Notes under the pieces: generated by a model
Database searches by the model: none
Seen by the model: only the letters and a program-made list of their open reading frames with translations
What the model was told of the DNA's origin: nothing
Shown here: positions 2,852 through 43,730 of the stretch, one piece after another
Position numbering within the stretch: position 1 is the first letter of the stretch
Layout: each line of letters starts with the position of its first letter
Source of the DNA: an uncultured virus (IMG/VR IMGVR_UViG_3300018023_000193)
Lineage: Duplodnaviria > Heunggongvirae > Uroviricota > Caudoviricetes
Direction: 5' to 3' (one strand)
Virus record (IMG/VR): IMGVR_UViG_3300018023_000193
Length of the DNA: 64,000 nt
Position numbers and translations under genes: made by a program

Positions 2852-3139
2852 ATGAGAAAAGAATTGAAGAAGTTTAAACTTGAGAAAGCCTTCCATGAAT
2901 GCGGAGTATCTAAACTAAAACCATTTAATGGTGCTGGTGTAGATTTCTATTATGAGCCATTTGAACAAGTGGAACAAAATATGCGCAGAGAAGATATGAT
3001 GAAGAAATTAACTTCTCCACAACAAAATTTTGTAAAATCTTTAATGGGAGGTGTTTCTATAAAAGAATTGGGTTTGGATAAAGATAAATTAGGATTTATG
3101 GTGAAACAAATTCAAAACGAATTACATACAACGGAGTAA
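2852..3139 (+). CDS. hypothetical protein
   Basis: ATG just downstream of promoter; 95 aa. Confidence 0.65.
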   Translation: MRKELKKFKLEKAFHECGVSKLKPFNGAGVDFYYEPFEQVEQNMRREDMMKKLTSPQQNFVKSLMGGVSIKELGLDKDKLGFMVKQIQNELHTTE

Positions 3140-5859: not shown

Positions 5860-7938
5860 ATGCTAGATATTGATACTAAACTCGCAGAAATAAAAACTAA
5901 AAGTTATAATGGGTTGTTTGAAAATTTTATTAAACAACCCAGTAATGCTGGTTCCATCCTTGAAGATATAACAGAAATCCTCCAAAGAAATTTTCCTACT
6001 CCTACTAAAGAATTCGAAGATATTGGATTCGAATTTGCGAAACCTACCCAAATCAATTTTAGTAACTTATTATCTTTACAAGATGTATTATCCTATAGTA
6101 ATTTTGAACGATTGGTAAGAATCATTCAAAAAGGACAATTACGAACATCAACAAGTGGAGAAGATGCCGTTTATGTAATCCAATATCATAATCAAAAATA
6201 TATTATTGATGGAAATCATAGAATAGCTGCAATGATTTTATTTGGTAAAACAAATGTTTCTGGGAAACTTTTAGATTTAGATCATTTACCAGATAATTCT
6301 CCTGATAGATTAATTGCTGAATTTAAAAAATTAGGTGTTGTTATATCTTTTTCAGATCATCCAAGAAATGGAGAATTTTTAAAAAATGATTGTTCTATTA
6401 AAATTCTGGATATAATTTTAGGTGTTTTTAAAAAAGCTAAACAAAAAAATTTGAAATTACCTCCTGAAATTAAAGTTGATAATTCAATGGAATTATATGC
6501 TTATTATGATCATATTGATCATTTTATGGGAATTAATACAGGATTATTTTTAAATCCTACAATTACCCATTCTTATGTAATTGATAATGATAAAGAAGCT
6601 TTAATATGGCATGAATTAGGACATATTTATCATGAAAAAACACAAAGTAAAACATTTTCAAAAGAGACTTCATTTTCTCTTAAATTGAAACGAGATATAG
6701 AAGATAAAGTTAGTGAATATGCTGCGGTAAATTCTACAGAATTTGTGGCTGAAGTTTTTTGTGGGAAAATTTTTCATAAATCATTTGAAAAATGGATATT
6801 AGATTTATATAATTATATATTAGATCCAAAAACAGAAGTATTGGGTAGCCAATTTGAATTTAATAAAAAAACTCATCTTATTTCTCTTAGACTCCCAGTT
6901 TCACCTACTGCCAAATTATCTTCAGCTACCATAAAACAAATTATAACTAAATTAGGATATAAAGATGTTTTAAATGAACCTCTTATAGGTATTCCTAAAG
7001 CATTTTATATTATGGTTAAAAATAAAAAAGAAATTATTAATTTTGTTAAACCTATTTTTGATGCTTTAAGAATTTATAATCCTAAAATGAAAGAATTAGA
7101 ACATGAAGGTCCTTACTTACCAGAATATCGGTATATTGAAGTAGGAGATTTTAAAATTTTTGCAAGAATTAAAGATACAATTAAATTACCTACAATGTCT
7201 GCAGGAAGAAAAAATGAATTAGATTTTTATAATGCAATTCATGAATATTTGGAAGTATATAAAAATATTAATATTGAATTCCAAGTTAATGGACGAACAG
7301 ATTTTTTTGTTAAAAATATTACTGATATTATTGATGTAAGTACCAAAAAAACTAAAGAACGTTTAAAAAGTAATATGAATTTGGTTACGTATCGAGGTAT
7401 AGTTCCAATTTCAATCAAACAAGCTGATGCGCCTGGATGGGAATCACCAGAAACATATTGGGGAGAAATTACTCAACATGTATTTGAATATGTATTAGAT
7501 ACTTATCCAAAATTGGTGAAATTAAAAAATAAGAATGGTATATATAATTTGGATCCAGAAATAGATATTCAAACTTCTTCCCAAGAAGCTCAAGATGTAA
7601 TTTTTGGTGATGATATTTATAAACATGGTGCGGTTATTAAACAAACTTGGGAAACAAGATATTTTGATTGGGATTATAGGTTTAATACATTAATTTTAGA
7701 ATGTAAAACCATTATTCAAAATTTAAATGATGTTCCTTTTGAAGATTATCCATTTTTTCAAATTAGAAATTTTGAAAATAAAAATCCAAAATACCTATTA
7801 AAAGGATTAGGTGTATTGGCTGTAACAAAGAAAACTATAGCTAAACGCCATATTCTTTTAGAAAATCAAGAAGCACAAACTGCAAAACAATATGTTTCTC
7901 CAAATTATACATTAGAAAATATTCGTAAAGCCACTTGA
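5860..7938 (+). CDS. multidomain protein: ParB/Srx-like + HExxH zincin-like + nuclease-like C-terminal region
   Basis: IIDGNHR (~aa117), WHELGH (~aa251) with SEYA..N..EFVAE, C-terminal KSN..L..PISIK; CTAAATA late box upstream. Confidence 0.65.
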   Translation: MLDIDTKLAEIKTKSYNGLFENFIKQPSNAGSILEDITEILQRNFPTPTKEFEDIGFEFAKPTQINFSNLLSLQDVLSYSNFERLVRIIQKGQLRTSTSGEDAVYVIQYHNQKYIIDGNHRIAAMILFGKTNVSGKLLDLDHLPDNSPDRLIAEFKKLGVVISFSDHPRNGEFLKNDCSIKILDIILGVFKKAKQKNLKLPPEIKVDNSMELYAYYDHIDHFMGINTGLFLNPTITHSYVIDNDKEALIWHELGHIYHEKTQSKTFSKETSFSLKLKRDIEDKVSEYAAVNSTEFVAEVFCGKIFHKSFEKWILDLYNYILDPKTEVLGSQFEFNKKTHLISLRLPVSPTAKLSSATIKQIITKLGYKDVLNEPLIGIPKAFYIMVKNKKEIINFVKPIFDALRIYNPKMKELEHEGPYLPEYRYIEVGDFKIFARIKDTIKLPTMSAGRKNELDFYNAIHEYLEVYKNINIEFQVNGRTDFFVKNITDIIDVSTKKTKERLKSNMNLVTYRGIVPISIKQADAPGWESPETYWGEITQHVFEYVLDTYPKLVKLKNKNGIYNLDPEIDIQTSSQEAQDVIFGDDIYKHGAVIKQTWETRYFDWDYRFNTLILECKTIIQNLNDVPFEDYPFFQIRNFENKNPKYLLKGLGVLAVTKKTIAKRHILLENQEAQTAKQYVSPNYTLENIRKAT

Positions 7939-9227: not shown

Positions 9228-9785
9228 ATGAAAACTATTGTAGTCACTTATGGAAGATTCCAACCACCTACACGTGCTCATGGTGAATTATTTTGGGCAA
9301 TGCAAACTGAAGCTGATAAAATATGGAATTGTCCTGTTAGTATTTTCATTTCTCCTAAGCAAGATCATAAAAATAATCCTCTTTCTTTTCAAGCTCGTCA
9401 AGATTATTTGTGGAAATGTGGTCTTACAATTTCGAGAGGAGTAAATCCTGTAAATAATCCATTTCTTGCAGTTTGCCAATTAGGAGATGCTGGTTATGAA
9501 AGAGTAATTTTTTATTGTGGTTCAGATCAATTGAAGAAATATGAAACATGGAAACAATATATCAATCATAAAGATCCAAAGAAAAGGATTCCCGGTGTTC
9601 AAGAATTAATTTTCCGTCAATTTGGATTACCTCGTGGTCCTGTGAATGATATGAATGCCACTCAAGCACGAGAGGCCGCTAAAGCCGGTGACTTTGAGAC
9701 TTTCAATTCCATTGTATTGGGGACCAATTTGGAACAAAATAGGTCACTTTACTTGGATACCGTTTCTGGTCTCCTGGATAAGTAA
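9228..9785 (+). CDS. HIGH-superfamily nucleotidyltransferase (phage cytidylyltransferase-like)
   Basis: GRFQPPTRAH, KNNPL, GSDQ, MNATQAREAA. Confidence 0.85.
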   Translation: MKTIVVTYGRFQPPTRAHGELFWAMQTEADKIWNCPVSIFISPKQDHKNNPLSFQARQDYLWKCGLTISRGVNPVNNPFLAVCQLGDAGYERVIFYCGSDQLKKYETWKQYINHKDPKKRIPGVQELIFRQFGLPRGPVNDMNATQAREAAKAGDFETFNSIVLGTNLEQNRSLYLDTVSGLLDK

Positions 9786-10378
9786 ATATAATGTGATTGA
9801 GACATTTTTTGTTTGGTTTCTTTTGAATGTTTAAATCCTAAATGACTTTTATTCCCCATAGCGGCCAAAGACATATTCTTTCTACTTTCTTGAGAATGTT
9901 TTCGTCCAACATTTCTTTTATTTCCAATTAAAGATTTTGAAATTTTTTTTCTTGTTTCTTTAGAACATTTTATTCCTTTATTCCAAGCCATTTGTAATCC
10001 TTTCTTTCCTTTATTCCAGGGAATTTTACCTTTATGTATTTCTGACATTTTTTGTTTTGTTTTTTCGGATATATGTCCCGAACCATCTCCACCAGGAGTC
10101 ATATTATATCCGTTATGATAAGTATCATACTTCGCAATCATTTCAATTTCTAATTTCTTGGCTTCTTGTAGGGTCAGAATATTATTAATTAGGACTTTAT
10201 GAAGCCATTGATTTTCATTGGGGTATTTTAGGATTGCTTTATGAAATTTTCTTAATCCCCGCTTTGAATCATTTAGATGTATTTTCCATCTTTCTTCAAT
10301 TGTTTTATACGTATATCCGATATAAGATTTTCCTGAAGGACTTGTATGTTTGTAAATGAGATAAATATTTTTAGACAT
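9749..10378 (-). CDS. free-standing GIY-YIG homing endonuclease with NUMOD3 repeats
   Basis: IYKHTSPSGKSYIG, R/E/N catalytic pattern (ERW, LEIEMI, GYNMT), HS.ETK.KMS repeats; start at ATG 10378. Confidence 0.92.
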   Translation of the reverse strand: MSKNIYLIYKHTSPSGKSYIGYTYKTIEERWKIHLNDSKRGLRKFHKAILKYPNENQWLHKVLINNILTLQEAKKLEIEMIAKYDTYHNGYNMTPGGDGSGHISEKTKQKMSEIHKGKIPWNKGKKGLQMAWNKGIKCSKETRKKISKSLIGNKRNVGRKHSQESRKNMSLAAMGNKSHLGFKHSKETKQKMSQSHYIYLSRRPETVSK

Positions 10379-10446
10379 ATGCGATAGAACCTTTCTATTG
10401 CTTTGTTTAGGGACCATGTGGTGCTAATGACACTACTTGGTCCTAT

Positions 10447-17230: not shown

Positions 17231-18958
17231 ATGCAGAATTATCTACCTACAGATTACCAGGAATATATTCATCTTTCAAGATATGCCCGTTGGCGCGATG
17301 ATTTACAAAGGAGAGAAAATTGGTTAGAAACAGTAGAACGATATTTTGATTTTTTTGGAAAGAGATTAGAAGATAAATTTGTAGATAGCAGCCGAGAAAA
17401 TGAACAAAGCCCTTTTGAAATCCAATTCCAAGAGGCCCATAAGGCCGTATTGAACCTTGAAGTGATGCCGTCCATGCGGGCCCTAATGACCGCAGGTGAA
17501 GCATTAGAAAAAGATAACAGCGCAGGATATAATTGTGCTTTTATAGGTATAGATCATCCACATACATTTGATGAAATGATGTTCATTTTAATGTGCGGAA
17601 CCGGTTGTGGGCTTTCAGTAGAAAAACAATATGTAAGTCAACTGCCCACAATAGCACCTAAAATGTATCCGACAAATACAACTATTGTGGTTGATGATTC
17701 TAAAATTGGATGGGCAACTGCTTATCGTGAATTGCTTGCTTTATTATGGACGGGTAAAGTTCCTAAATGGGATACAAGTCTTTTACGACCTATGGGCGCG
17801 CGCCTCAAAACATTTGGAGGTAGAGCAAGTGGACCTGGGCCATTAGAAGAACTTTTCCGATTTACTGTGGCCACATTTAAGAATGCTGCTGGTAGAAAAT
17901 TAACTACTCTTGAATGTCACGATATTGTATGTAAAATTGCCGAAATTGTTGTGAGTGGCGGTGTTCGTAGATCTGCATTAATTTCATTATCAGATTTAGA
18001 AGATATGCGTATGCGCGATTGTAAATCAGGTGATTGGTGGAAAACAAATCCACATAGACGCTTGGCAAATAATAGCGCAATTTATACAGAAAAACCTCCA
18101 ATGGGAGTGTTTATGGAGGAATGGTCCTCATTATTCAAAAGTAATTCTGGTGAGCGCGGTATTTTAAATAGAGCGGCTTTAACAAAACATGCTGGTAAAA
18201 ATGGAAGAAGAAAAGTTTTAAATGATGATAAAACACCTATTTTATTTAGCACGAATCCGTGTGGTGAAATTATTCTCCGTAATAAACAGTTTTGTAATTT
18301 ATCGGAGGTTGTTATCCGATCTAATGACACGGTAGAATCCATTAAACAAAAAATAAAATATGCCACAATATTAGGAACTTTACAATCTACACTTACAAAG
18401 TTCCGTTATTTGTCAGATAAATGGAAAGAGAATACAGAAGAAGAAAGATTACTTGGTGTTTCTCTTACTGGTATTTTAGATAATGCTATTCTTTCTGGAC
18501 AAAATAAAGATTATAAGTTAAGTGAAGTATTACAGGAATTTCGACAAGTGGCTGTTGATACTAATAAAATATGGGCTGAATTTTTAGGTATTAATCAATC
18601 AGTAGCGGTCACGTGTGTTAAACCTTCTGGATGTACTACATTAGATACAATTATTAAAACTAAATATGGTGAATTATCTTTATTAGAAATTTTTATGAAA
18701 AATGGTTATTCATTATCATATATAAAAACTTGTCAAGAAAAATGGATTATACCAAAAGTAAAAATAAATGTATTTGATGATAATAATAATGAACAAGAAA
18801 TAACTAAATTATATATTAATGGTATTGATGATTTATATGAAATTGAATGTATAGATGGTAAAAAATATAAATTTACTCCAAACCATAAATTATTAACTAA
18901 AACTGGTTGGAAAAGAGTAGATGAATTAACTGTGGATGATGAATTGATAGAATTATGA
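17231..18958 (+). CDS. nrdJ: class II (B12-dependent) ribonucleotide reductase, N-terminal fragment (467 aa) fused to N-half of a split intein
   Basis: SRYARW, PSMRAL, YNCAF, GGVRRSA, TNPCGEI, FCNLSE, TCVKPSG followed by intein block A CTTLDT. Confidence 0.95.
   Translation: MQNYLPTDYQEYIHLSRYARWRDDLQRRENWLETVERYFDFFGKRLEDKFVDSSRENEQSPFEIQFQEAHKAVLNLEVMPSMRALMTAGEALEKDNSAGYNCAFIGIDHPHTFDEMMFILMCGTGCGLSVEKQYVSQLPTIAPKMYPTNTTIVVDDSKIGWATAYRELLALLWTGKVPKWDTSLLRPMGARLKTFGGRASGPGPLEELFRFTVATFKNAAGRKLTTLECHDIVCKIAEIVVSGGVRRSALISLSDLEDMRMRDCKSGDWWKTNPHRRLANNSAIYTEKPPMGVFMEEWSSLFKSNSGERGILNRAALTKHAGKNGRRKVLNDDKTPILFSTNPCGEIILRNKQFCNLSEVVIRSNDTVESIKQKIKYATILGTLQSTLTKFRYLSDKWKENTEEERLLGVSLTGILDNAILSGQNKDYKLSEVLQEFRQVAVDTNKIWAEFLGINQSVAVTCVKPSGCTTLDTIIKTKYGELSLLEIFMKNGYSLSYIKTCQEKWIIPKVKINVFDDNNNEQEITKLYINGIDDLYEIECIDGKKYKFTPNHKLLTKTGWKRVDELTVDDELIEL
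18632..18955 (+). mobile_element. split intein N-fragment (108 aa)
   Basis: Cys1 (CTTLDTII), block B FTPNHKLLT, GWKRVDEL..DDEL then stop. Confidence 0.92.
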
Positions 18959-19590
18959 CCGCAAGAAAAATATATGAAAATTATTATAATATAATTCTTC
19001 CGAATAAAATGGAAGTTCATCATATTAAACCATCGTTTGATGGTGGCACCAATGATATTGAAAATTTGGTAGCATTTACTAAAGAAGAACATAAATTGGA
19101 ACACCTATTTCGTTATATACGATATGGAAATTTTAAAGATTTATGTTCTTTTTATATGATAGGTTATAATTTTACTGAAGCACATAAAATATCATCTGGT
19201 GAAGGTGGTAAAATAGGTGGTGCCAAAGTTAAAAAATTAAAAATTGGAATATGTACCACAAATAAAAATAAAAGAAAATTATGGGCATCAATGGGTGGTA
19301 AAGTTGGTGGTAAAATTCAATCTGAATTGGGTTTAGGATTTCATAAATATTATCATTTTGATAAAGAAAAACATTTAGAAATATGTTCAATGGGAGGAAA
19401 GTCTTCACCAGTATTTAAAGATTCTAAAAATCAAAGTAAATTTGGAAAAATTGGTGGTCCAAAAAATAAAGGATTTAAATGGTATAGTAATGGAATTAAT
19501 AATTTTAAATACACTAAAAAAGAACAAGAATCATTATCATTTGATAAATTTTTAAAATTAAATCCTCAATTTAGAAAAGGTAGAAAATGA
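18955..19590 (+). CDS. free-standing HNH homing endonuclease between the intein halves
   Basis: EVHHIKP..DGGTN..ENL.....EH...H; Gly-rich S.GGK.GG repeats; ATGA overlaps on both sides. Confidence 0.88.
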   Translation: MTARKIYENYYNIILPNKMEVHHIKPSFDGGTNDIENLVAFTKEEHKLEHLFRYIRYGNFKDLCSFYMIGYNFTEAHKISSGEGGKIGGAKVKKLKIGICTTNKNKRKLWASMGGKVGGKIQSELGLGFHKYYHFDKEKHLEICSMGGKSSPVFKDSKNQSKFGKIGGPKNKGFKWYSNGINNFKYTKKEQESLSFDKFLKLNPQFRKGRK

Positions 19591-19691
19591 AAATAGTTTC
19601 AATACATAAAGTGGAAAAAGATTTTACAGTAGATATTGAAGTTGAAAATTCTCACTGTTATCAATTATCTAATGGAATTATATCACATAAT
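19587..19691 (+). mobile_element. split intein C-fragment (35 aa)
   Basis: Block F (VDIEVENSHCY) and block G ending His-Asn, with Thr+1. Confidence 0.92.
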
Positions 19692-20246
19692 ACGGTTTCA
19701 CAATTAGTAGATTCAGCAAGTGGTATTCATCCAAGATATTCTCAATTTTATATTAGACGCGCGCGCGCAGATAAAAAAGATCCAGTTTCTAAATTAATGA
19801 GAAATGCTGGAGTGCCAGTTGAAGATGATGTAACACATCCCGATCAAACGGATGTATTTTCATTCCCTATGAAATCTCCTGATACTGCTATTTTACGGAA
19901 TGATTTAAGTGCTTTAGACCAATTGCGTTTGGCTATGATTTATCAAAAAAATTGGTGCGAACATAAAACATCTATAACGGTATATGTTCGTGAATCGGAA
20001 TGGTTAGAAGTTGGCGCCTATGTCTATAAAAATTTTGATGAATTAAGTGGAGTAGCATTTTTACCATTTGATAATGGATCATATCGTCAAGCGCCCTATG
20101 AAGAAATAACGGAACAACAATATAATGAAGCATTAGATAAAATGCCTAAAAATATTGATTGGTCACAAATAACCAAATATGAATTAGATGATCAAACTGT
20201 TCATTCTAAAGACTTTGCCTGCGTAGGAAATTCATGCGAATTATAG
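19587..20246 (+). CDS. nrdJ: split intein C-half (35 aa) fused to C-terminal fragment of class II RNR (184 aa)
   Basis: MKIVSI..VDIEV..SH.Y...GIISHN|TVSQLVDSASGIHP; EHK.S.T; QAPYEEI; terminal ACVGNSCEL. Confidence 0.95.
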   Translation: MKIVSIHKVEKDFTVDIEVENSHCYQLSNGIISHNTVSQLVDSASGIHPRYSQFYIRRARADKKDPVSKLMRNAGVPVEDDVTHPDQTDVFSFPMKSPDTAILRNDLSALDQLRLAMIYQKNWCEHKTSITVYVRESEWLEVGAYVYKNFDELSGVAFLPFDNGSYRQAPYEEITEQQYNEALDKMPKNIDWSQITKYELDDQTVHSKDFACVGNSCEL

Positions 20247-20870: not shown

Positions 20871-21809
20871 GTGATTCCTTGGATCTATAATGGCGAACCG
20901 ATAACAATTCCTCCAGAAGGAATATTTGGTTTTGTTTATAATATCAAATGTAATTTAAATGGGCGTCAATATATTGGCAAAAAACAGTTTTGGTCTAATC
21001 GTTCTAAAAAGGTTCCTGGGAAGAAAAATAGAAAACATATAGTATCTGAATCGGATTGGAAAGAATATTGGTCAAGTTCTGAAGATGTAAAAGCCGATAT
21101 TGAAAAATTTGGGCAAGAAAATTTTACTCGGGAAATTATCCGAATGTGTCCAATGAAAAGAGATTTGACTTTTGGTGAAGTAGAAATTCAAATAAAATTG
21201 GATGTATTAACGGCCTTGCTTCCAGATGGAACTAGGAAATTTTATAATAAAAATATACTTTCTCGCTGGTTTGTTCAACCGAATTTTAAATCAGAAGAAA
21301 CTAGACAAAAAATGTCTGAAGCCGCTATTAAATTGTGGAAGAATCCAGCACACAAAGAAAAACAGCACCAAAAATCTCAATCCAAAGAAACTAAAAAGAA
21401 ACATAGTTTGGCAATACATAAACTTTATAAAGATCCGGAATATTGTAAGAAAATGAGTAAAGCCCTGAAGGGTCATGTTGGTGTAATTCATACAGAAGAA
21501 ACTAAAAAAAATATTGGTAAGAAAAATTCGGATCATTGGAAAGATCCTGTTGCTAAAGAAAAACGAATAGAAACATTTATAAAAATTAGAAATACACCAG
21601 AATATAAAGAAAAACAAAGTAAGATCCAAAAAGTTGTTCAGGCTGAAGATTGGAAAATAATTTATCCTAATGGTGAAGAAAAACAAATTAAAAATCTTAA
21701 CCAATTTTGTAGAGATAATGATTTACAATCTAGTAATATGATCCGTGTTTCTCAAGGAAAACAAGATTATCATAAAGGATTTAGATGCTTTAAAGTTTTA
21801 TTAAAATAA
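20871..21809 (+). CDS. GIY-YIG (Seg-like) endonuclease with NUMOD-type DNA-binding repeats
   Basis: GFVY..YIGKK, ESDW..YWSS, F.REI, YN.NI; SEETRQKMS repeats; C-terminal NL..FCR.N.L..S.M module. Confidence 0.85.
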   Translation: MIPWIYNGEPITIPPEGIFGFVYNIKCNLNGRQYIGKKQFWSNRSKKVPGKKNRKHIVSESDWKEYWSSSEDVKADIEKFGQENFTREIIRMCPMKRDLTFGEVEIQIKLDVLTALLPDGTRKFYNKNILSRWFVQPNFKSEETRQKMSEAAIKLWKNPAHKEKQHQKSQSKETKKKHSLAIHKLYKDPEYCKKMSKALKGHVGVIHTEETKKNIGKKNSDHWKDPVAKEKRIETFIKIRNTPEYKEKQSKIQKVVQAEDWKIIYPNGEEKQIKNLNQFCRDNDLQSSNMIRVSQGKQDYHKGFRCFKVLLK

Positions 21810-31028: not shown

Positions 31029-31448
31029 TTGCTTCCGATTTTACAAAAAATACATGAACCAGGTGAATATAATCCAACATTGAAAGATATTCGTACTTGG
31101 GCAGGGATTTTAAATGAATCTTGTTTTAACGGTGTTATTCCGAAATTTCGTCATATAAAAATTCAGAAAATATCTGGACAATTAGCCGCATGTGATCCAA
31201 TGGGATGGAAAAATGATGATGATATAAGAGAGGCAAATTTACAAATAGATAGTAGTTTTCCAGATTTTAAAAGTTTTATTGTTATATTAGCACATGAAAT
31301 GATTCATGCTTGGCAATGGGTAATTAAAGGGAAAATGACCCACGGAAAGACATTCTTTCAATGGAAAGAAAAATTATTAGAACAAGGTATTCCATTACAT
31401 AAAGAATATCACCGAAAGAAAATACTTGACACCGAAGTTGTAGTGTGA
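31029..31448 (+). CDS. SprT-like zinc metalloprotease
   Basis: N...F.G..P, LAHEMIH.WQ, HG..F. Confidence 0.85.
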   Translation: MLPILQKIHEPGEYNPTLKDIRTWAGILNESCFNGVIPKFRHIKIQKISGQLAACDPMGWKNDDDIREANLQIDSSFPDFKSFIVILAHEMIHAWQWVIKGKMTHGKTFFQWKEKLLEQGIPLHKEYHRKKILDTEVVV

Positions 31449-31454
31449 TAATAT
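31426..31454 (+). promoter_or_regulatory. sigma70-type promoter for the RNA gene cluster
   Basis: TTGACA-17-TAATAT with TGn. Confidence 0.75.
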
Positions 31455-31463
31455 TAAAGAGTG

Positions 31464-31604
31464 ATGAATTATAAATATTTATTTCCAACCATTTTGATTA
31501 TAGAAATGTTGAGTGCTTCAATCGTGTATGGATTTGTGAAGGATTGGAGACATTGTATTTATTGGTTTGCAGGTGCAGTGATAACAGGATCAGTTACATT
31601 TTAA
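31464..31604 (+). CDS. small two-helix membrane protein (46 aa, not in ORF track)
   Basis: MNYKYLFPTILIIEMLSASIVYGFVKDWRHCIYWFAGAVITGSVTF. Confidence 0.7.
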   Translation: MNYKYLFPTILIIEMLSASIVYGFVKDWRHCIYWFAGAVITGSVTF

Positions 31605-31607
31605 ATT

Positions 31608-31684
31608 CGGAAATTGGCTCAGTCTGGTAGAGCATCGGTTTTGGGAACCGAGGGTCGGTGGTTCGAATCCACCATTTCCGACCA
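31608..31684 (+). tRNA. trnP: tRNA-Pro (UGG), CCA encoded
   Basis: Acceptor CGGAAAT/ATTTCCG + ACCA; D arm GCTC/GAGC; anticodon arm TCGGT-TTTGGGA-ACCGA; T arm GGTGG-TTCGAAT-CCACC. Confidence 0.97.
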
Positions 31685-31686
31685 AA

Positions 31687-31815
31687 TTTAGGTATAGGCA
31701 AAAGTTTAAGCCGCCACTATCTATCGGCCGATAGAGAAGGTGTATGTGATAATACACCAACATAGGAGTGGTGATTCCTGGTGGGTTTTCGGACAGCAAC
31801 GACCAGGTACCTGAA
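31687..31815 (+). ncRNA. candidate unassigned multi-junction RNA
   Basis: Closing stem TTTAGGTA/TACCTGAA with nested stems GCCACT/AGTGGT, TCTATCG/CGATAGA, GGTGTAT/ATACACC, CCTGGT/ACCAGG. Confidence 0.6.
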
Positions 31816-31865
31816 ACATTTTAAATAGGAGGTGTCATTATGACGTATTAAGTTAGGAGCGTCAA

Positions 31866-32057
31866 ATGGCAAAAAGAAAAAGTATTCTCAATGGTTGCAG
31901 TTGTTCTCAATGTCGTAGAGGATTACATTCTGTTTTTGGACATATCAAAGTTGGTCAATTGAAACGTTCATTACGGAGAATAACAAAAGAACTATTGAAA
32001 AAAGAAAAATATGATGAAGCCATGGAAGTTATTTTAACCACTGGCTATTTGGATTAA
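31866..32057 (+). CDS. small basic Cys-containing protein (63 aa)
   Basis: AGGAG SD; CSCSQC motif; Lys/Arg-rich. Confidence 0.7.
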   Translation: MAKRKSILNGCSCSQCRRGLHSVFGHIKVGQLKRSLRRITKELLKKEKYDEAMEVILTTGYLD

Positions 32058-32060
32058 GGG

Positions 32061-32178
32061 TTTTAGATACTTTCGTCTAGTAAGTGAGGATACTTCAATA
32101 CTTATTTTATAAAGGCCTTTATGAAATAGGTATTGGGATTTAAGAGAGGGCGTAGCATAGTACGTCAAGTATCTAAAA
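32061..32178 (+). ncRNA. candidate structured RNA abutting the tmRNA acceptor piece
   Basis: 12-bp closing stem TTTTAGATACTT/AAGTATCTAAAA; long G-U-containing hairpin 32096-32135; 6-bp hairpin GGCGTA/TACGTC. Confidence 0.55.
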
Positions 32179-32180
32179 AT

Positions 32181-32445
32181 ATTGCTGTATAAAGACTTGT
32201 ATTGGGATTGCAAACAAGACGGGGTTTCGATTACCCCCGCCTCCACCAACTTCTCCATAGTTTTATATTATGGGGGCGTCAAGGTATCGATTGGTGTATA
32301 TCAGGATATAGGACAGCACGAGCAGAAACTCTCGTAAATCGGAATAAAACAATAACAGCCGATGAAACATTCGACTATTTGCCAATGGCCGCCTAAAACG
32401 GTTACGCAGCGGGCATCCTGGGAGCCTTGGAACAGAATCCCAGGA
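32181..32445 (+). ncRNA. ssrA: circularly permuted (two-piece) tmRNA; acceptor piece ends at CCA 32248, coding piece starts at 32272; tag ORF ADETFDYLPMAA at 32358-32396
   Basis: T arm GGGGT-TTCGATT-ACCCC + CGCCTCC-ACCA lies upstream of GGGGGCG; they pair as an acceptor stem with G3.U70; tag ends AA-stop; outer boundaries approximate. Confidence 0.92.
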
Positions 32446-32522: not shown

Positions 32523-32963
32523 ATGAATTCCCTAAATATATCCATGAAACTTATATTCCTATTAGTGTTTTTATTCTTACCCCTCCGTAGTCAACCGCTC
32601 ATAGAAAAACAGATAACTTGTATTACTCAAGCTATCTATTATGAAGCTGGAAATCAAAAGACATTAGGAAAAGAAGCGGTTGCGTTTGTAATATTTAATC
32701 GAGTACAAAAATATAATTTAACTCCTTGTGAAGTAATTAACCAAAAAATTGGTAATTTAAAACAATTCACTTGGAAATCTGGTCCAATTAAATGTTGGAA
32801 ACAATATATAACATCTTACCAAATAGCTCAAGATATGTATTGGAATTTAAATAATTATAAAGATCCTACTAAATGTGCTTTATATTTCCATGCATATTAT
32901 GTTAATCCAAAATGGGCCTATCATAGGACAATCCGTATTCAAGATCATATCTTCTTTAAATAA
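32523..32963 (+). CDS. SleB-like cell wall hydrolase (Hydrolase_2)
   Basis: Signal peptide; C...AIYYEA, AVA.VI.NR, QFTW, ALYFHA..V.P.W, I.DHIF. Confidence 0.9.
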   Translation: MNSLNISMKLIFLLVFLFLPLRSQPLIEKQITCITQAIYYEAGNQKTLGKEAVAFVIFNRVQKYNLTPCEVINQKIGNLKQFTWKSGPIKCWKQYITSYQIAQDMYWNLNNYKDPTKCALYFHAYYVNPKWAYHRTIRIQDHIFFK

Positions 32964-32964
32964 C

Positions 32965-32993
32965 TTGCTATCCTATTTGAATTGTGTTATAAT
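32965..32993 (+). promoter_or_regulatory. sigma70-type promoter
   Basis: TTGCTA-17-TATAAT with TGn. Confidence 0.75.
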
Positions 32994-33072
32994 ATAATTG
33001 AAAGGTAAAATTTATTATGCATGATTTTAATTATATGATTGGAATCAAGTTTTAGTAATTAGATTATGAAGC

Positions 33073-33417
33073 ATGAGTTATATAGATGATTGGGAAGAAC
33101 GAATAGAAAAATGTGATGTATGCTCCAATCCATTATATGAACATTGGAGAAGAAAACCATGTATGAAGAAAAAGAAAATAGATGAATCGGTAGACATTTT
33201 ATTTATAGATCATCCATTATATCAAATAACCCCAACAGCATTTTCATTAGAAATTGAAGATGTAGTTCGTAGAGAACGATTAGATTATTTTGATGCATTA
33301 ATGAAATTATGTGAGAAATATGAAATTGAATATGAATCTGTTCCTAAATTGTTAACCAAAACAATGAAAGAAAAATTAGAAATGGTTGCAATAGAAAGGA
33401 GATTATTAAAAGTATAA
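33073..33417 (+). CDS. gp33: late-promoter transcription coactivator gp33
   Basis: F...IE.......DY.DA....CE...IE.ESV.KL....KEKL; upstream of gp59-gp32. Confidence 0.85.
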   Translation: MSYIDDWEERIEKCDVCSNPLYEHWRRKPCMKKKKIDESVDILFIDHPLYQITPTAFSLEIEDVVRRERLDYFDALMKLCEKYEIEYESVPKLLTKTMKEKLEMVAIERRLLKV

Positions 33418-33419
33418 TT

Positions 33420-33542
33420 ATGCTTTTATTTTTATCAAATAAAGAGAAGATGAGTAAATCTCGTAAAGGGATTACTAAATCGGAGGAACATAAAATAAAA
33501 ATACGAGAATCTCATTTAAGGAGATTCAATGTCTCCCTATGA
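33420..33542 (+). pseudogene. homing endonuclease remnant (NUMOD3 fragment)
   Basis: KEKMSKSRKG..KSEEHK.KIRESH without a catalytic domain. Confidence 0.6.
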
Positions 33543-34164
33543 TGCTTTTGAATTATATATTGCCGTAAAAACACATTTTAATAGTCCAAGTTTTGATTTC
33601 CATAAATTCAATGGTAAAACCAGATTAACACCCAATTCATTTGATAAGCGGGAAGATAAAGCATTTTTCTACCGTATTTGTAAAAAATATTCCAAAGCCA
33701 AATTAATTGATTTATTTGTAGCCAATTTTGTAGATAATCCAAATTTATGGATTGGTGATTTATTAGATGAAACTTCGGAAGCAATTTACATTGAATGGTT
33801 AAAAAAGATTGAAAGTCTTACATATCATTTTTCAGAAGAATGCACCGGTTTATTGGAATGGGCTGAAATAAATGGATATACATTTAATGATTTATTTCGG
33901 ATTAAAGAAGGAAATCATCCAATTATTGTTAGAATGGTATTACAGAGAATTATTAGTTTAGAAACATTTATTATTTTAGATCGTATATTAGGATGTGGTT
34001 TTAATTTTAATAAACGATTAACAGATATAATTTGGAAAGATTTTTGGATGAAAATTTGTAAATATTCCCCCTTTATAAATATCAATTTGGAGAAATGTAA
34101 AAAACTACTCCGTGAAAAAATAAAACGGGAATACAAATATGCAATATGCGGAACTTCAAAATAG
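33529..34164 (+). CDS. gp59: helicase loader gp59
   Basis: Y.A.K.HF...FDF.K..GK, F.KR.D..F, W..DL, IS.ET..ILD, KY.PF. Confidence 0.92.
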   Translation: MSPYDAFELYIAVKTHFNSPSFDFHKFNGKTRLTPNSFDKREDKAFFYRICKKYSKAKLIDLFVANFVDNPNLWIGDLLDETSEAIYIEWLKKIESLTYHFSEECTGLLEWAEINGYTFNDLFRIKEGNHPIIVRMVLQRIISLETFIILDRILGCGFNFNKRLTDIIWKDFWMKICKYSPFININLEKCKKLLREKIKREYKYAICGTSK

Positions 34165-34321
34165 TTATAACATCATTTGTAAAAAATTTAATCAAGCGGT
34201 AGAAAAAGCTAATGATGAAATTGCTAAACGAGGTTGTTTAGAAATAGAAATTGCCACATTGAAAGAAGAATTAATCCGCACTTATCGAGAAATTTCGGAG
34301 TTAAAACATGCGAACATATGA
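34139..34321 (+). CDS. small coiled-coil hypothetical protein
   Basis: Overlaps gp59 end. Confidence 0.45.
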   Translation: MQYAELQNSYNIICKKFNQAVEKANDEIAKRGCLEIEIATLKEELIRTYREISELKHANI

Positions 34322-34463
34322 ATTGAAAATTGAAACCAATGATATAGATTTAGTAAAAGAAATTAATGAAATTTTATTAAAATCTCATGATTATAAATTA
34401 ACCACAACTGAAACTGTTATGGATAAACTTTATCCTATTAACCTCAATGAACAAACCTAGCAC

Positions 34464-34499
34464 TTGACATTCTCGGTAATTTATGTTATAATATAAATA
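34464..34499 (+). promoter_or_regulatory. tandem sigma70 (TTGACA-17-TATAAT) and late (TATAAATA) promoters for gp32
   Basis: TTGACA 34464-69, TATAAT 34487-92, TATAAATA 34492-99. Confidence 0.85.
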
Positions 34500-34503
34500 A
34501 TAG

Positions 34504-34614
34504 TAGGTAATCGGGGCTGCCGGAAAGAGTTGTTACCCGGACGGATTACCTATATAACTACTTTCATTATGACTCATGTGGACAAGAAAATAAAAGGAAA
34601 AATAATATAAGCAT
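34504..34614 (+). promoter_or_regulatory. structured gp32 5' leader (candidate autogenous operator)
   Basis: TAGGTAATC/GATTACCTA hairpin, then unstructured A-rich tract to ATG. Confidence 0.55.
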
Positions 34615-35583
34615 ATGAGTTTTGCCACATATAAAAAAAATAGAACAGATTTAACTAAAATAAATAAAAGAGTAGAAGAGATTTCAGAAGGAAATAAAAA
34701 TAAATTTAAAGATTCTCGATTTTGGAAACCTACCGTAGATAAAGCTGGTACGGGTTCTGCTAAAATTCGTTTTCTACCTGCTCCTGAAGGGGAAGATCTT
34801 CCCTGGATCCAATATTACGAACATAATTTTGATGTAGATGGAAATTATTATATTGAATTGTGTCCTACTACACTTGGTCGTGAATGCCCCGTTTGTAAAG
34901 CGAATGGAGTTTTATGGAAGACCGAATTGGATGAAAATAGAAATATTGTAAAAAAGCGTAAACGCCAATTGCGGTATGTTTCTAATATTTTGGTATTAAA
35001 AGATAAAGAAACACCCGAAAACGAAGATAAAGTATTTTTATATCAATATGGTCAGAAAATTTTCGAAAAAATTAAAGGTGCTTTAAAACCCAAGGATGAA
35101 GAAGATCCCGCAATTAATGTATTTGATTTTTGGGAAGGTGCAGATTTTAATCTCGATATCAAAAAGGTTGCAGGATATCGTAATTATGATGACAGTAAAT
35201 TCCGTACCTCTTCACTTGCCTGTAGTGGAGATGAAACCAAAATGGAAAAGATTTATAAACAACTTTATAAATTACAACCATTTGTTGAAGAATCTAAATT
35301 TAAATCTTATGAGGAATTAGAAAAGAAATTTAATGATACAGTTAATGGAGTTAAAGGAAAGATTCAAAAGAAAGCTGATGAATTATTTGGTGAAACTAAA
35401 CTTGCGGAAGATGTAGCCAAAAAATCACCATCTAAAAATGCTAAAGAAGAAAAAGAAACTAAAGCCCCTTGGGAAGAAGCTGTAAGAAAACCTTCCAAGA
35501 AAAAGAAAGAAATAACTACTGATTCAGAAGTAGTAGTTGAAAATGAAGATTCTTTAAATGATTATGAGAAATTATTAGATTAG
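34615..35583 (+). CDS. gp32: single-stranded DNA-binding protein gp32
   Basis: D.RFWKP..DK.G.G.A.IRFLP, YIE.C..T.G..CPVC, FD.W.GA.F, NYD.S.F, acidic tail. Confidence 0.97.
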   Translation: MSFATYKKNRTDLTKINKRVEEISEGNKNKFKDSRFWKPTVDKAGTGSAKIRFLPAPEGEDLPWIQYYEHNFDVDGNYYIELCPTTLGRECPVCKANGVLWKTELDENRNIVKKRKRQLRYVSNILVLKDKETPENEDKVFLYQYGQKIFEKIKGALKPKDEEDPAINVFDFWEGADFNLDIKKVAGYRNYDDSKFRTSSLACSGDETKMEKIYKQLYKLQPFVEESKFKSYEELEKKFNDTVNGVKGKIQKKADELFGETKLAEDVAKKSPSKNAKEEKETKAPWEEAVRKPSKKKKEITTDSEVVVENEDSLNDYEKLLD

Positions 35584-43004: not shown

Positions 43005-43730
43005 ATGTATATCATTTACAAACACACTAATATAATTAATGATTTGGCTTATATTGGTTATACTTGCCAAACCATTGAAAATCGTTGGAAAGCACATATA
43101 AAATCGTCTTTAAAACAAGAATGGAAATTTAGTCAAGCAATCAAACAAATTCCCTATCAATTTTGGGACCACGAAATCCTTATAGATAATATCTTAACTT
43201 TGGAAGAAGCCAAGAAATTAGAAATTGAAATGATTGCCAAGTATAACACTTATTATAATGGTTATAATATGAATTTAGGTGGATCTGGCAGGCAAAAATA
43301 TACTATGTCTGAAAAAATAAAAAAGAAAATAAGTCAAGCAACTAAATTGGCTATGTCTCGACCTGAAATTAAAAAGAAAATGTCAGAATTCCAGAAGAAA
43401 TATTTTAAAGAACATCCAGAAAAACATCCTATGAAAGGGAAAAAACATTCTCAAGCATCTATTGAAAAAATGTCAAATTCTCATTTACAAATGACAGAAG
43501 AAACGAAAAAGAAAATTGGTCAAGGATCTAAAAAGACTTGGAAAAATCCTGAAACTCGTAAAAAAAGAATACATCACCTTCAAAATATGTCTCCGGAAAC
43601 TCGGCAAAAGATGTCTTTTGCCAAAAAAGGAAAACCATCTTGGAATAAAGGTAAAAAATGGCCAAAAGAAACAATTGAAAAAATGCGCCAAACAAAATTA
43701 GGTAAAAGAAAATTAGAGGTATGTATTTAA
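43005..43730 (+). CDS. free-standing GIY-YIG homing endonuclease with NUMOD3 repeats
   Basis: IIYKHTN..N...YIGYT, RW, LEIEMI, GYNMN.GG; TATAAATA at 42992-99; close paralogue of gene at 10378. Confidence 0.92.
   Translation: MYIIYKHTNIINDLAYIGYTCQTIENRWKAHIKSSLKQEWKFSQAIKQIPYQFWDHEILIDNILTLEEAKKLEIEMIAKYNTYYNGYNMNLGGSGRQKYTMSEKIKKKISQATKLAMSRPEIKKKMSEFQKKYFKEHPEKHPMKGKKHSQASIEKMSNSHLQMTEETKKKIGQGSKKTWKNPETRKKRIHHLQNMSPETRQKMSFAKKGKPSWNKGKKWPKETIEKMRQTKLGKRKLEVCI

Follow-up and report, generated by a model that had tools for sequence, protein, structure and literature searches.

Why should a phage gather, behind a single promoter, a tRNA gene, small folded RNAs, a three-codon minigene, a gene for a basic cysteine protein and a transfer-messenger RNA (tmRNA) in two pieces? 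The question is raised by positions 31426 to 32445 of the uncultured virus record IMGVR_UViG_3300018023_000193 (IMG/VR), of which a stretch of 64,000 nt, hereafter the window, was analysed; it comes from the genome of a T4-like phage. A first-pass annotation had read the cassette as a co-transcribed unit supplying or redirecting ribosome rescue, for example against host defences that cleave tRNA or tmRNA, and all the parts it listed are present: promoter, 46-aa open reading frame (ORF), tRNA-Pro, a first structured RNA (RNA1), minigene, 63-aa ORF (the Cys gene), a second structured RNA (RNA2) and a permuted tmRNA. The new part is RNA1, a previously unlisted family of tRNA mimics in a phage tmRNA/tRNA cassette of known type. 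With somewhat better than even confidence, we read the cassette as an early, host-processed transcript that supports translation and lies at an old tmRNA slot, RNA1 being a non-decoding mimic and RNA2 a passenger.

Conservation of the cassette

Relatives were gathered through gp32 searches and RNA1-loop searches (L011, L012, L013, L014, L015, L090 and L148; L labels denote the loci or contigs compared); with the window they make up the 8 genomes of the clade counts. L016 is identical to L015 over the region, L090 has near-identical copies, the same DNA as the window occurs in six IMG/VR contigs, and L017 was left out of the counts because the cassette lies before the start of its contig. In 8/8 genomes, tRNA-Pro, the Cys gene and the permuted tmRNA were found in the same order. 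The order recurring in the 7 relatives is promoter, tRNA-Pro, minigene and Cys gene, permuted tmRNA, and gp33-gp59-gp32. A search for the same gene order in other phages, proposed in the first-pass annotation, gave the core order in 8/8 genomes, with the minigene in 7/8 and RNA1 in 6/8. The Cys proteins of the clade are 30–62% identical, except for the L090/L148 pair (89%), and the persistence of order and linkage in 8 genomes despite this divergence supports the reading of the cassette as a translation-support transcript.

Unrelated ORFs are inserted between cassette parts in several genomes, yet the order survives, and the slot carries differing ORFs and folded RNAs genome by genome. A metallophosphoesterase-like ORF (motifs recognized by eye) lies between the Cys gene and the tmRNA in L014 (4194-4784) and L015 (3601-4119), an 820-nt insertion separates these two genes in L148 (~395-1220, reversed strand), and a GIY-YIG-like ORF follows the tmRNA in L090 (3309-3992, reversed strand).

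RNA1 is a tRNA-shaped RNA with a rebuilt T-loop

RNA1 (31688..31818, + strand) was delimited by parsing, covariation, a covariance model and RNAalifold, and folds better than shuffled sequences (z -3.8 to -4.7). All 7 full copies could be parsed into a 7-bp acceptor stem, U8, a D arm, an anticodon arm, a short variable loop and a 5-bp T stem closing a 21-nt loop, followed by a 4-nt tail (N-N-C-A). RNA1 shares with canonical tRNA (RF00005) the acceptor length, U8, the 4-bp D stem, the 5-bp anticodon stem, the short variable loop, the 5-bp T stem ending in G-C and the 4-nt 3' tail. It differs in the near-invariant 21-nt loop, which replaces the 7-nt T-loop in 7/7 copies and holds an inner 3-bp tetraloop hairpin, in a D-loop without GG, and in keeping neither an anticodon nor identity pairs. 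In the window, the anticodon arm is enlarged by two hairpins.

The parse itself required 7/7 acceptor pairs, but the stems stand at constant distances from invariant letters of the loop in a gap-free alignment, and RNAalifold, unaided, returned the same cloverleaf. Over the six rows counted, 95.1% of 144 cells were paired and 17 of the 24 pairs showed compensatory change, including 7/7 in the acceptor stem and, in the T-loop hairpin, its middle pair. Sliding the pair partners lowered pairing to 34–47%. A model built without the window scored the window copy at 68 bits (E 1.7e-14), and its next-best matches were true tRNAs aligned with the T-loop dropped, which points to a tRNA ancestry for RNA1. 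RNA1 had no Rfam family at the gathering score and was also missed by ARAGORN. A likeness of its T-loop to the helix-8 loop of signal recognition particle (SRP) RNA was not supported, since no SRP match was obtained at E<=10.

The anticodon loop varies from 6 to ~50 nt and in sequence, with no triplet kept; pairs 1-72, 2-71 and 3-70 and N73 vary, leaving no synthetase identity pairs; and the 3' end reads CCA in 3 of the 7 copies, ACA in 2 and GCA in 2. Judged from these copies, the features that vary in RNA1 are those that a decoding tRNA keeps, and the fixed ones are those absent from tRNA. Since the anticodon and identity parts vary while the 21-nt T-loop and the GG-less D-loop are fixed, the working surface of RNA1 would be the rebuilt elbow of D- and T-loops, which may bind a partner. 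A role as anticodon decoy was rejected because the anticodon loop is not conserved.

Two kinds of phage RNA invite comparison. The T4 RNAs C and D (rnaC, rnaD), whose role is not established according to the parts of the sources consulted (PMC3014915, PMC9697503), are likewise small and folded, follow a tRNA gene immediately in a tandem arrangement, and have tRNA-like 3' ends. However, rnaC keeps a normal T arm, whereas RNA1 forms the complete cloverleaf, has a rebuilt T-loop and is linked to a tmRNA; the RNA1 model gave no match over either T4 RNA at E<=5 with filters off. The tmRNA of mycobacteriophage DS6A, consisting of a tRNA-like domain (TLD) only, is a proposed SmpB sponge in the portions of the reports consulted (PMC4131195, PMC11915505). 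Like it, RNA1 is a small tRNA-like phage RNA that may titrate a host factor; unlike it, RNA1 has a D stem and lacks G3.U70 (6/6 copies tested), and for these reasons RNA1 is not a tmRNA fragment. Among the possible readings of RNA1 alone, a decoy or sponge that acts in trans by binding a protein is the one to which we tentatively lean, just short of an even chance, with a putative target.

The permuted tmRNA

The tmRNA (+ strand) consists of an acceptor piece ending in CCA (32183..32248, with an approximate 5' end taken from the Rfam match), a 23-nt intervening sequence (32249..32271) and a coding piece (32272..32445) with a 3' hairpin at ~32416-32445. It matches RF04321 at 114 bits (cut-off 47), with acceptor piece, spacer and coding piece all present. 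Scores were 83.5 bits against the betaproteobacterial model RF01850 (cut-off 84) and 66.7 bits against the alpha model (cut-off 50), and by score it is closest to the betaproteobacterial model, not the alpha model, though just short of the cut-off of the former. The alanylation marks G3.U70, A73 and CCA are present. The tag frame (32358-32396), read as ADETFDYLPMAA by ARAGORN on the identical contigs, has a resume context and a hydrophobic end; ARAGORN calls the tmRNA at a relaxed threshold, not at the default. The tag is of the degradation type. Every tag read ends in AA, and the clade tags (three called by ARAGORN, the others by eye) differ at their start from most of the other phage tags compared. 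Such a start could change adaptor binding.

The absence of smpB, which the first-pass annotation reported for the window, extends further: none was found in 5 virus records, among them 3/3 near-complete relatives, with a control search that was positive in 10/14 genomes. The 3 near-complete relatives also yielded neither a CCA-adding enzyme nor PTH2, and all 3 encode an Rnl1-type RNA ligase. Because the alanylation marks and a degradation-type tag are kept, the tmRNA could supply rescue together with host SmpB, so that the first half of the proposal "supplies or redirects rescue" is upheld; redirection is not favoured by tags that all end in AA.

According to the parts of PMC9004378 consulted, the two-piece tmRNA (ssrA) of Methylophilales phage Melnitz lies at this slot, and 53 two-piece forms occur among 133 phage tmRNA structures. 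The tmRNA described here resembles that of Melnitz in being permuted, in its intact tRNA-like domain and in its position in a T4-like phage, upstream of the late coactivator gene and behind an early promoter. It differs in being closest to the betaproteobacterial rather than the alpha model, in having no glutamine riboswitch match, and in being preceded by tRNA-Pro, RNA1, the minigene and the Cys gene, which are not described for Melnitz in those parts of the paper. Permuted tmRNAs also precede gp33 in distant T4-like loci without any other cassette part. Given the published slot and its occupation in these distant loci, neither the tmRNA nor its place is new: T4-like aquatic phages have long had this slot before gp33, and the tmRNA is ordinary. 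Matches from a generic permuted-tmRNA pattern search were mostly due to chance and were set aside.

The minigene and the 63-aa Cys protein

The Cys gene is preceded by a Shine-Dalgarno sequence with a three-codon minigene (ORF 31840-31851) and then a second Shine-Dalgarno sequence (31827..31851 in all, + strand). The minigene is present in 7/8 clade genomes, with 3–5 codons and always ending in TAA, and since none was found at 49/49 other GGAG-led starts, it is specific to the Cys gene. In the axe-txe operon a cis-acting minigene raises translation of the next gene, according to the part of PMC8708949 consulted. The phage minigene is likewise a very short ORF just upstream, and could raise translation of the next gene as well as mRNA stability; it differs in its 3–5 codons, its own strong Shine-Dalgarno sequence and its position in a phage RNA cluster, and its effect is putative.

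The 63-aa basic protein (31866..32057, + strand; delimited from the ORF list, a profile and a model) has a CxCxxC knuckle, a long basic helix and a C-terminal Y-x-D. Its predicted structure (pLDDT 83) shows the Cys knuckle, the long helix and a tail. A search with the single sequence found only itself, and no Pfam, PHROG or NCBIfam family was assigned; a profile search gave a family of 128 clusters at E<=0.001. The family has a single invariant Cys and a single invariant Arg, the end Y-[TLY]-D occurs in 99/117 members, and the median net charge is +9. The three nearest Atlas clusters are unnamed and 71–89% viral among members with a record, and the protein is single-copy in each of the 5 entries searched (two of them the same record). 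A Pfam scan of 117 members gave no match to SmpB or a rescue factor, and hit only four unrelated families with one member each (E<=0.01). A weak ribosomal likeness, to the helix of archaeal-type uS4, was seen at E 0.093. Fold comparison gave a best VIA Z of 4.1, with none >=5, and Foldseek against pdb returned 0 rows, which is not evidence of a new fold. No isolate-phage homologue was found by tblastn with 5 members, short queries being insensitive in such searches.

Outside the clade, 35 loci of the Cys family from two other subfamilies (30 distinct proteins) were compared. Thirteen of these lie among tRNA genes, a share for which there is no background control; the other 22, of which 12 belong to one close clade, lack a tRNA within 2.5 kb. 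A permuted tmRNA occurs within 2.5 kb at only 2/35, both among the thirteen, and for this reason the 63-aa protein is, as far as genomic neighbourhood tells, a general phage protein leaning to tRNA arrays and not a tmRNA cofactor. Its composition suggests that it is probably zinc-binding and probably RNA- or ribosome-binding.

Linkage of RNA1 and the Cys gene to the tmRNA

RNA1 occurs in 6/8 clade genomes and in L150, a phage contig of unrelated gene content. Besides the seven full copies, L015 carries a second, degenerate one (24.7 bits); of four records scanned for copy number, three have RNA1 once and one lacks it. All 7 full copies, six of which share descent, lie upstream of a permuted tmRNA, and four of them (in 4 genomes) begin 3–5 nt behind the CCA of tRNA-Pro. 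In L150, no tRNA directly precedes RNA1, which lies 132 nt before the permuted tmRNA, followed by tRNA-Tyr, tRNA-Pro and tRNA-His; there is no Cys gene within 3.2 kb. RNA1 was not found in 25/25 other permuted-tmRNA loci, four of which are only ~635 nt long, and a search of 50,697 isolate phage records gave no meaningful match. As exact-motif scans miss diverged members, this range is a lower bound.

Several candidates were set aside. One exact match to the RNA1 motif in the species genomes of GTDB was not scored by the RNA1 model; those in L101, L151, L156 and L157, together with extra motif matches (best 17.7 bits), were taken as chance; and two tRNA-like stretches with enlarged T arms, noticed by eye in L011, were left unscored by the model, so that L011 was counted as lacking RNA1. 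Other folded RNAs were noted near RNA1. In L013, a stretch between RNA1 and the minigene (~2697-2945) resembles T4 rnaC in its end, a normal T arm followed by CCCA, and folds no better than shuffled sequences. In L150, the gap between RNA1 and the tmRNA is filled by a GC-rich RNA of four hairpins (~2362-2485, - strand; z -5.5) with no Rfam match, and a 112-nt tRNA match lies at 2997-3108.

This linkage could mean that the cassette is a dedicated ribonucleoprotein unit in which the direct target of RNA1, the 63-aa protein or both is the phage tmRNA, which they would shield against a host nuclease or whose use of SmpB or outcome of rescue they would alter. Such a unit would account for the position of every full RNA1 copy, including that of the unrelated L150, for the Cys gene preceding the tmRNA in 8/8 clade genomes and for the unusual tag starts, and host systems predicted to target tmRNA, the CoCoNuTs, appear in the part of PMC11090510 consulted. 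However, the partners separate readily: besides the absence of RNA1 from the 25 other permuted-tmRNA loci and the scarcity of tmRNAs near other Cys-family genes, the Cys gene occurs in 0/23 permuted-tmRNA loci not selected through the protein, L150 has RNA1 without the Cys gene, and L012 has the Cys gene without RNA1. Nor does the RNA1 loop have a conserved complement in its own tmRNA (5–8 nt, at differing places), which led us to reject pairing between the two, and the tags all keep their AA end. We therefore consider a dedicated unit unlikely. The first-pass annotation had suggested the small protein and the two RNAs as dedicated partners; this is mostly not supported, given the counts above for the 63-aa protein and RNA1 and the restriction of RNA2 to 1/8 genomes. 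That annotation had not noted the tRNA shape of RNA1 and, probably, of RNA2, nor that the tmRNA slot was already published. Its reading as a whole is partly supported, with co-transcription, host processing and a role against host defences putative.

Transcription, tRNA-Pro and RNA2

The cassette is headed by a sigma70-type promoter with an extended -10 box (31426..31454, + strand; TTGACA-17-TAATAT with TG), found at the same place in 7/7 clade genomes with the region visible. The promoter scan of the window overall was not above chance (34 sites versus 38.6 in shuffles), but this site is conserved. The next ORF starts 6–9 nt past the -10 box and the cassette mRNA is probably leaderless. The TTGACA promoter type gave 57 further matches in 15 stretches of these phages, with a start codon 5–10 nt downstream of 19/57 such promoters outside the cassette, which suggests that leaderless mRNAs may be frequent in this clade as a general habit; examples of a promoter with a close start are found at 7935, 21900, 31426 and 45541 of the window and in related loci. 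No terminator-like site was found on the + strand between the promoter and the tmRNA, and no promoter-like site directly upstream of the tmRNA. With one promoter and no terminator, a single precursor transcript is likely.

The first ORF (31464..31604, + strand, from the ORF list; 46 aa, or 47 aa from GTG at 31461) encodes a hydrophobic protein of a family with no assigned function. It has homologues in 5/7 visible clade genomes and 28 database relatives at E<=0.001 among 94 candidates; Pfam and NCBIfam scans gave no match. In L011 (3218-3330 and 4012-4305), the promoter and ORF start are duplicated, one on each side of tRNA-Pro, and the two tRNA-like stretches mentioned above are close by.

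tRNA-Pro (31608..31684, + strand; anticodon UGG, TGG in the DNA), called as a tRNA with its CCA encoded, is in the cassette of 8/8 clade genomes, the L148 copy being cut at the contig end. In four related records (L103-L110), the main tRNA arrays gave 61 tRNA calls, none of them Pro, which indicates that the gene has remained beside the tmRNA. A review treats RNA repair and phage tRNAs as answers to tRNA cleavage (PMC7824862). At 4 of the 13 tRNA-array loci of the Cys family (L116, L121, L130 and L131), Pro(UGG) is the nearest tRNA on one side of the Cys-family gene, at a distance of 2–198 nt, which may reflect shared descent.

RNA2 (approximately 32061..32178, + strand; delimited by its fold against shuffles and by parsing) is strongly folded (z -5.7 to -5.9; -39.3 kcal/mol on the + strand versus -24.7 on the other), and all 4 non-Watson-Crick pairs of its long hairpin are U-G on the + strand. 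It could be parsed into a 7-bp acceptor-like stem (32066-32173), a D-arm-like arm, a 22-bp central hairpin and a T-arm-like hairpin without the T-loop consensus. The likeness of its D arm to tRNAs is modest (best score 22 versus a shuffled maximum of 24; top-five mean 21.0 versus a shuffled maximum of 20.2 in 60 shuffles), and RNA2 is probably, if loosely, tRNA-shaped. No homologue was found in 276 loci, an exact 18-mer matched only the 6 identical contigs, and L011 and L090 have the Cys gene immediately next to the tmRNA, without an RNA2; for both reasons RNA2 is not needed. L012, L013 and L014 also have folded stretches at this slot, but these were not above shuffles (z +1.9, -0.9 and -0.4). 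An 11-nt stretch of the RNA2 hairpin (32066-32173) recurs in the tmRNA acceptor piece (32197-32207), by chance or local duplication.

The shapes and positions of RNA1 and RNA2 also bear on the idea, to our minds slightly less probable than a dedicated unit, that both are punctuation in cis: tRNA-shaped cut signals with no later job, which would release tRNA-Pro at its 3' end and both the Cys mRNA and the tmRNA at their 5' ends. RNA1 does follow tRNA-Pro immediately, and RNA2 immediately precedes the tmRNA, the stems covary freely, all 7 RNA1 copies have U at -1, and the tmRNA lacks a promoter-like site of its own. Nevertheless, a near-invariant and abnormal 21-nt loop exceeds what a cut signal needs, L011 and L090 do without RNA2, and the L150 copy of RNA1 has no tRNA directly before it.

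Proposed role of the cassette

Host RNA polymerase would read the cassette from 31426, and host nucleases, most likely RNase P and RNase E, would cut at its tRNA-shaped elements, as the anatomy of the cassette and knowledge of permuted tmRNAs suggest. Both enzymes belong to general tRNA processing. The cuts would free tRNA-Pro and RNA1, together with a short mRNA and both pieces of the tmRNA. Charged with alanine and aided by host SmpB, the tmRNA would free stalled ribosomes and tag their products for proteolysis, topping up or replacing host tmRNA. The minigene may load ribosomes where the cut has left a new 5' end, and so protect the mRNA and link translation to the 63-aa gene. RNA1 would be a tRNA-derived mimic acting in trans, as a decoy or sponge for a host protein that handles tRNA or tmRNA, with its stems held for shape only and its rebuilt D/T-loop corner held in sequence. 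The 63-aa protein would be an early phage protein rather than a tmRNA cofactor, and RNA2 a replaceable passenger.

Several points weigh against this translation-support reading. The transcription and processing of the cassette are deduced from sequence. RNase P may recognize RNA1 poorly, given its 21-nt loop and the lack of GG in its D-loop, CCA is encoded in fewer than half of the RNA1 copies (3/7), and the protein partner of RNA1 is putative. The absence of RNA1 from L011 and L012 (2/8 clade genomes) makes it dispensable, its family has only 7 full copies, two from close relatives, and the pair counts rest on 6 rows with a shuffle control that ignores relatedness.

That there is no functional unit at all, only an insertion hotspot behind a strong early promoter with parts linked by descent, fits the slot contents that differ per genome, the private RNA2 and the lone permuted tmRNAs before gp33 in distant T4-like phages, but is the least probable of the alternatives because RNA1 remains linked to tmRNA even in an unrelated phage, tRNA-Pro has kept this place apart from the main arrays, the minigene goes specifically with the Cys gene and each part is under selection.

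Neighbouring genes

Downstream of the cassette (32523..35583, + strand), family matches identify a cell-wall hydrolase (Hydrolase_2), the late coactivator gp33, the loader gp59, and gp32; RNase H is also found around the cassette, and the window further encodes UvsX, a helicase, a primase and baseplate genes. gp32 holds a group I intron in L015/L016 (7269-7651), and gp32 of L017 is split too. In the window, a B12-dependent ribonucleotide reductase (17231-20246) is in pieces, with intein signals and an intervening 211-aa ORF, and three GIY-YIG-type homing endonuclease genes lie at 9749-10417 (- strand), 20871-21809 and 43005-43730, that at 20871 also matching a PHROG labelled NAD synthetase.

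Significance

No description of RNA1 or of the Cys-protein family was found in the open literature searched, the supplement lists of PMC10690425 (10,006 candidate viral RNAs), which might include RNA1, lying outside the search. Standard tRNA finders and Rfam miss RNA1, so that counts of such RNAs in phage genomes may be too low. The 63-aa protein belongs to a family, as yet unnamed, that comprises at least 128 sequence clusters and has a conserved motif at its C-terminus. It has long been asked why tmRNA and tRNA-like RNAs, such as T4 RNA C and D, are carried by lytic phages, and RNA1 brings to this question a small, well-defined family in which shape (the covarying stems) is already separable from the likely working surface (the invariant 21-nt loop).

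A wider generalization is rather doubtful, though a little less so than the alternatives above: RNA1 might be the first of a class of rebuilt-elbow tRNA mimics that travel with tmRNA, and the Y-x-D zinc protein a widespread, minigene-tied ribosome-binding factor. If so, RNAs of this class would protect or steer trans-translation, whether by gating SmpB, by acting as a sponge for a host nuclease directed at tmRNA or tRNA, or in some other way, and synthesis of the Y-x-D protein would be tied to termination at its minigene.

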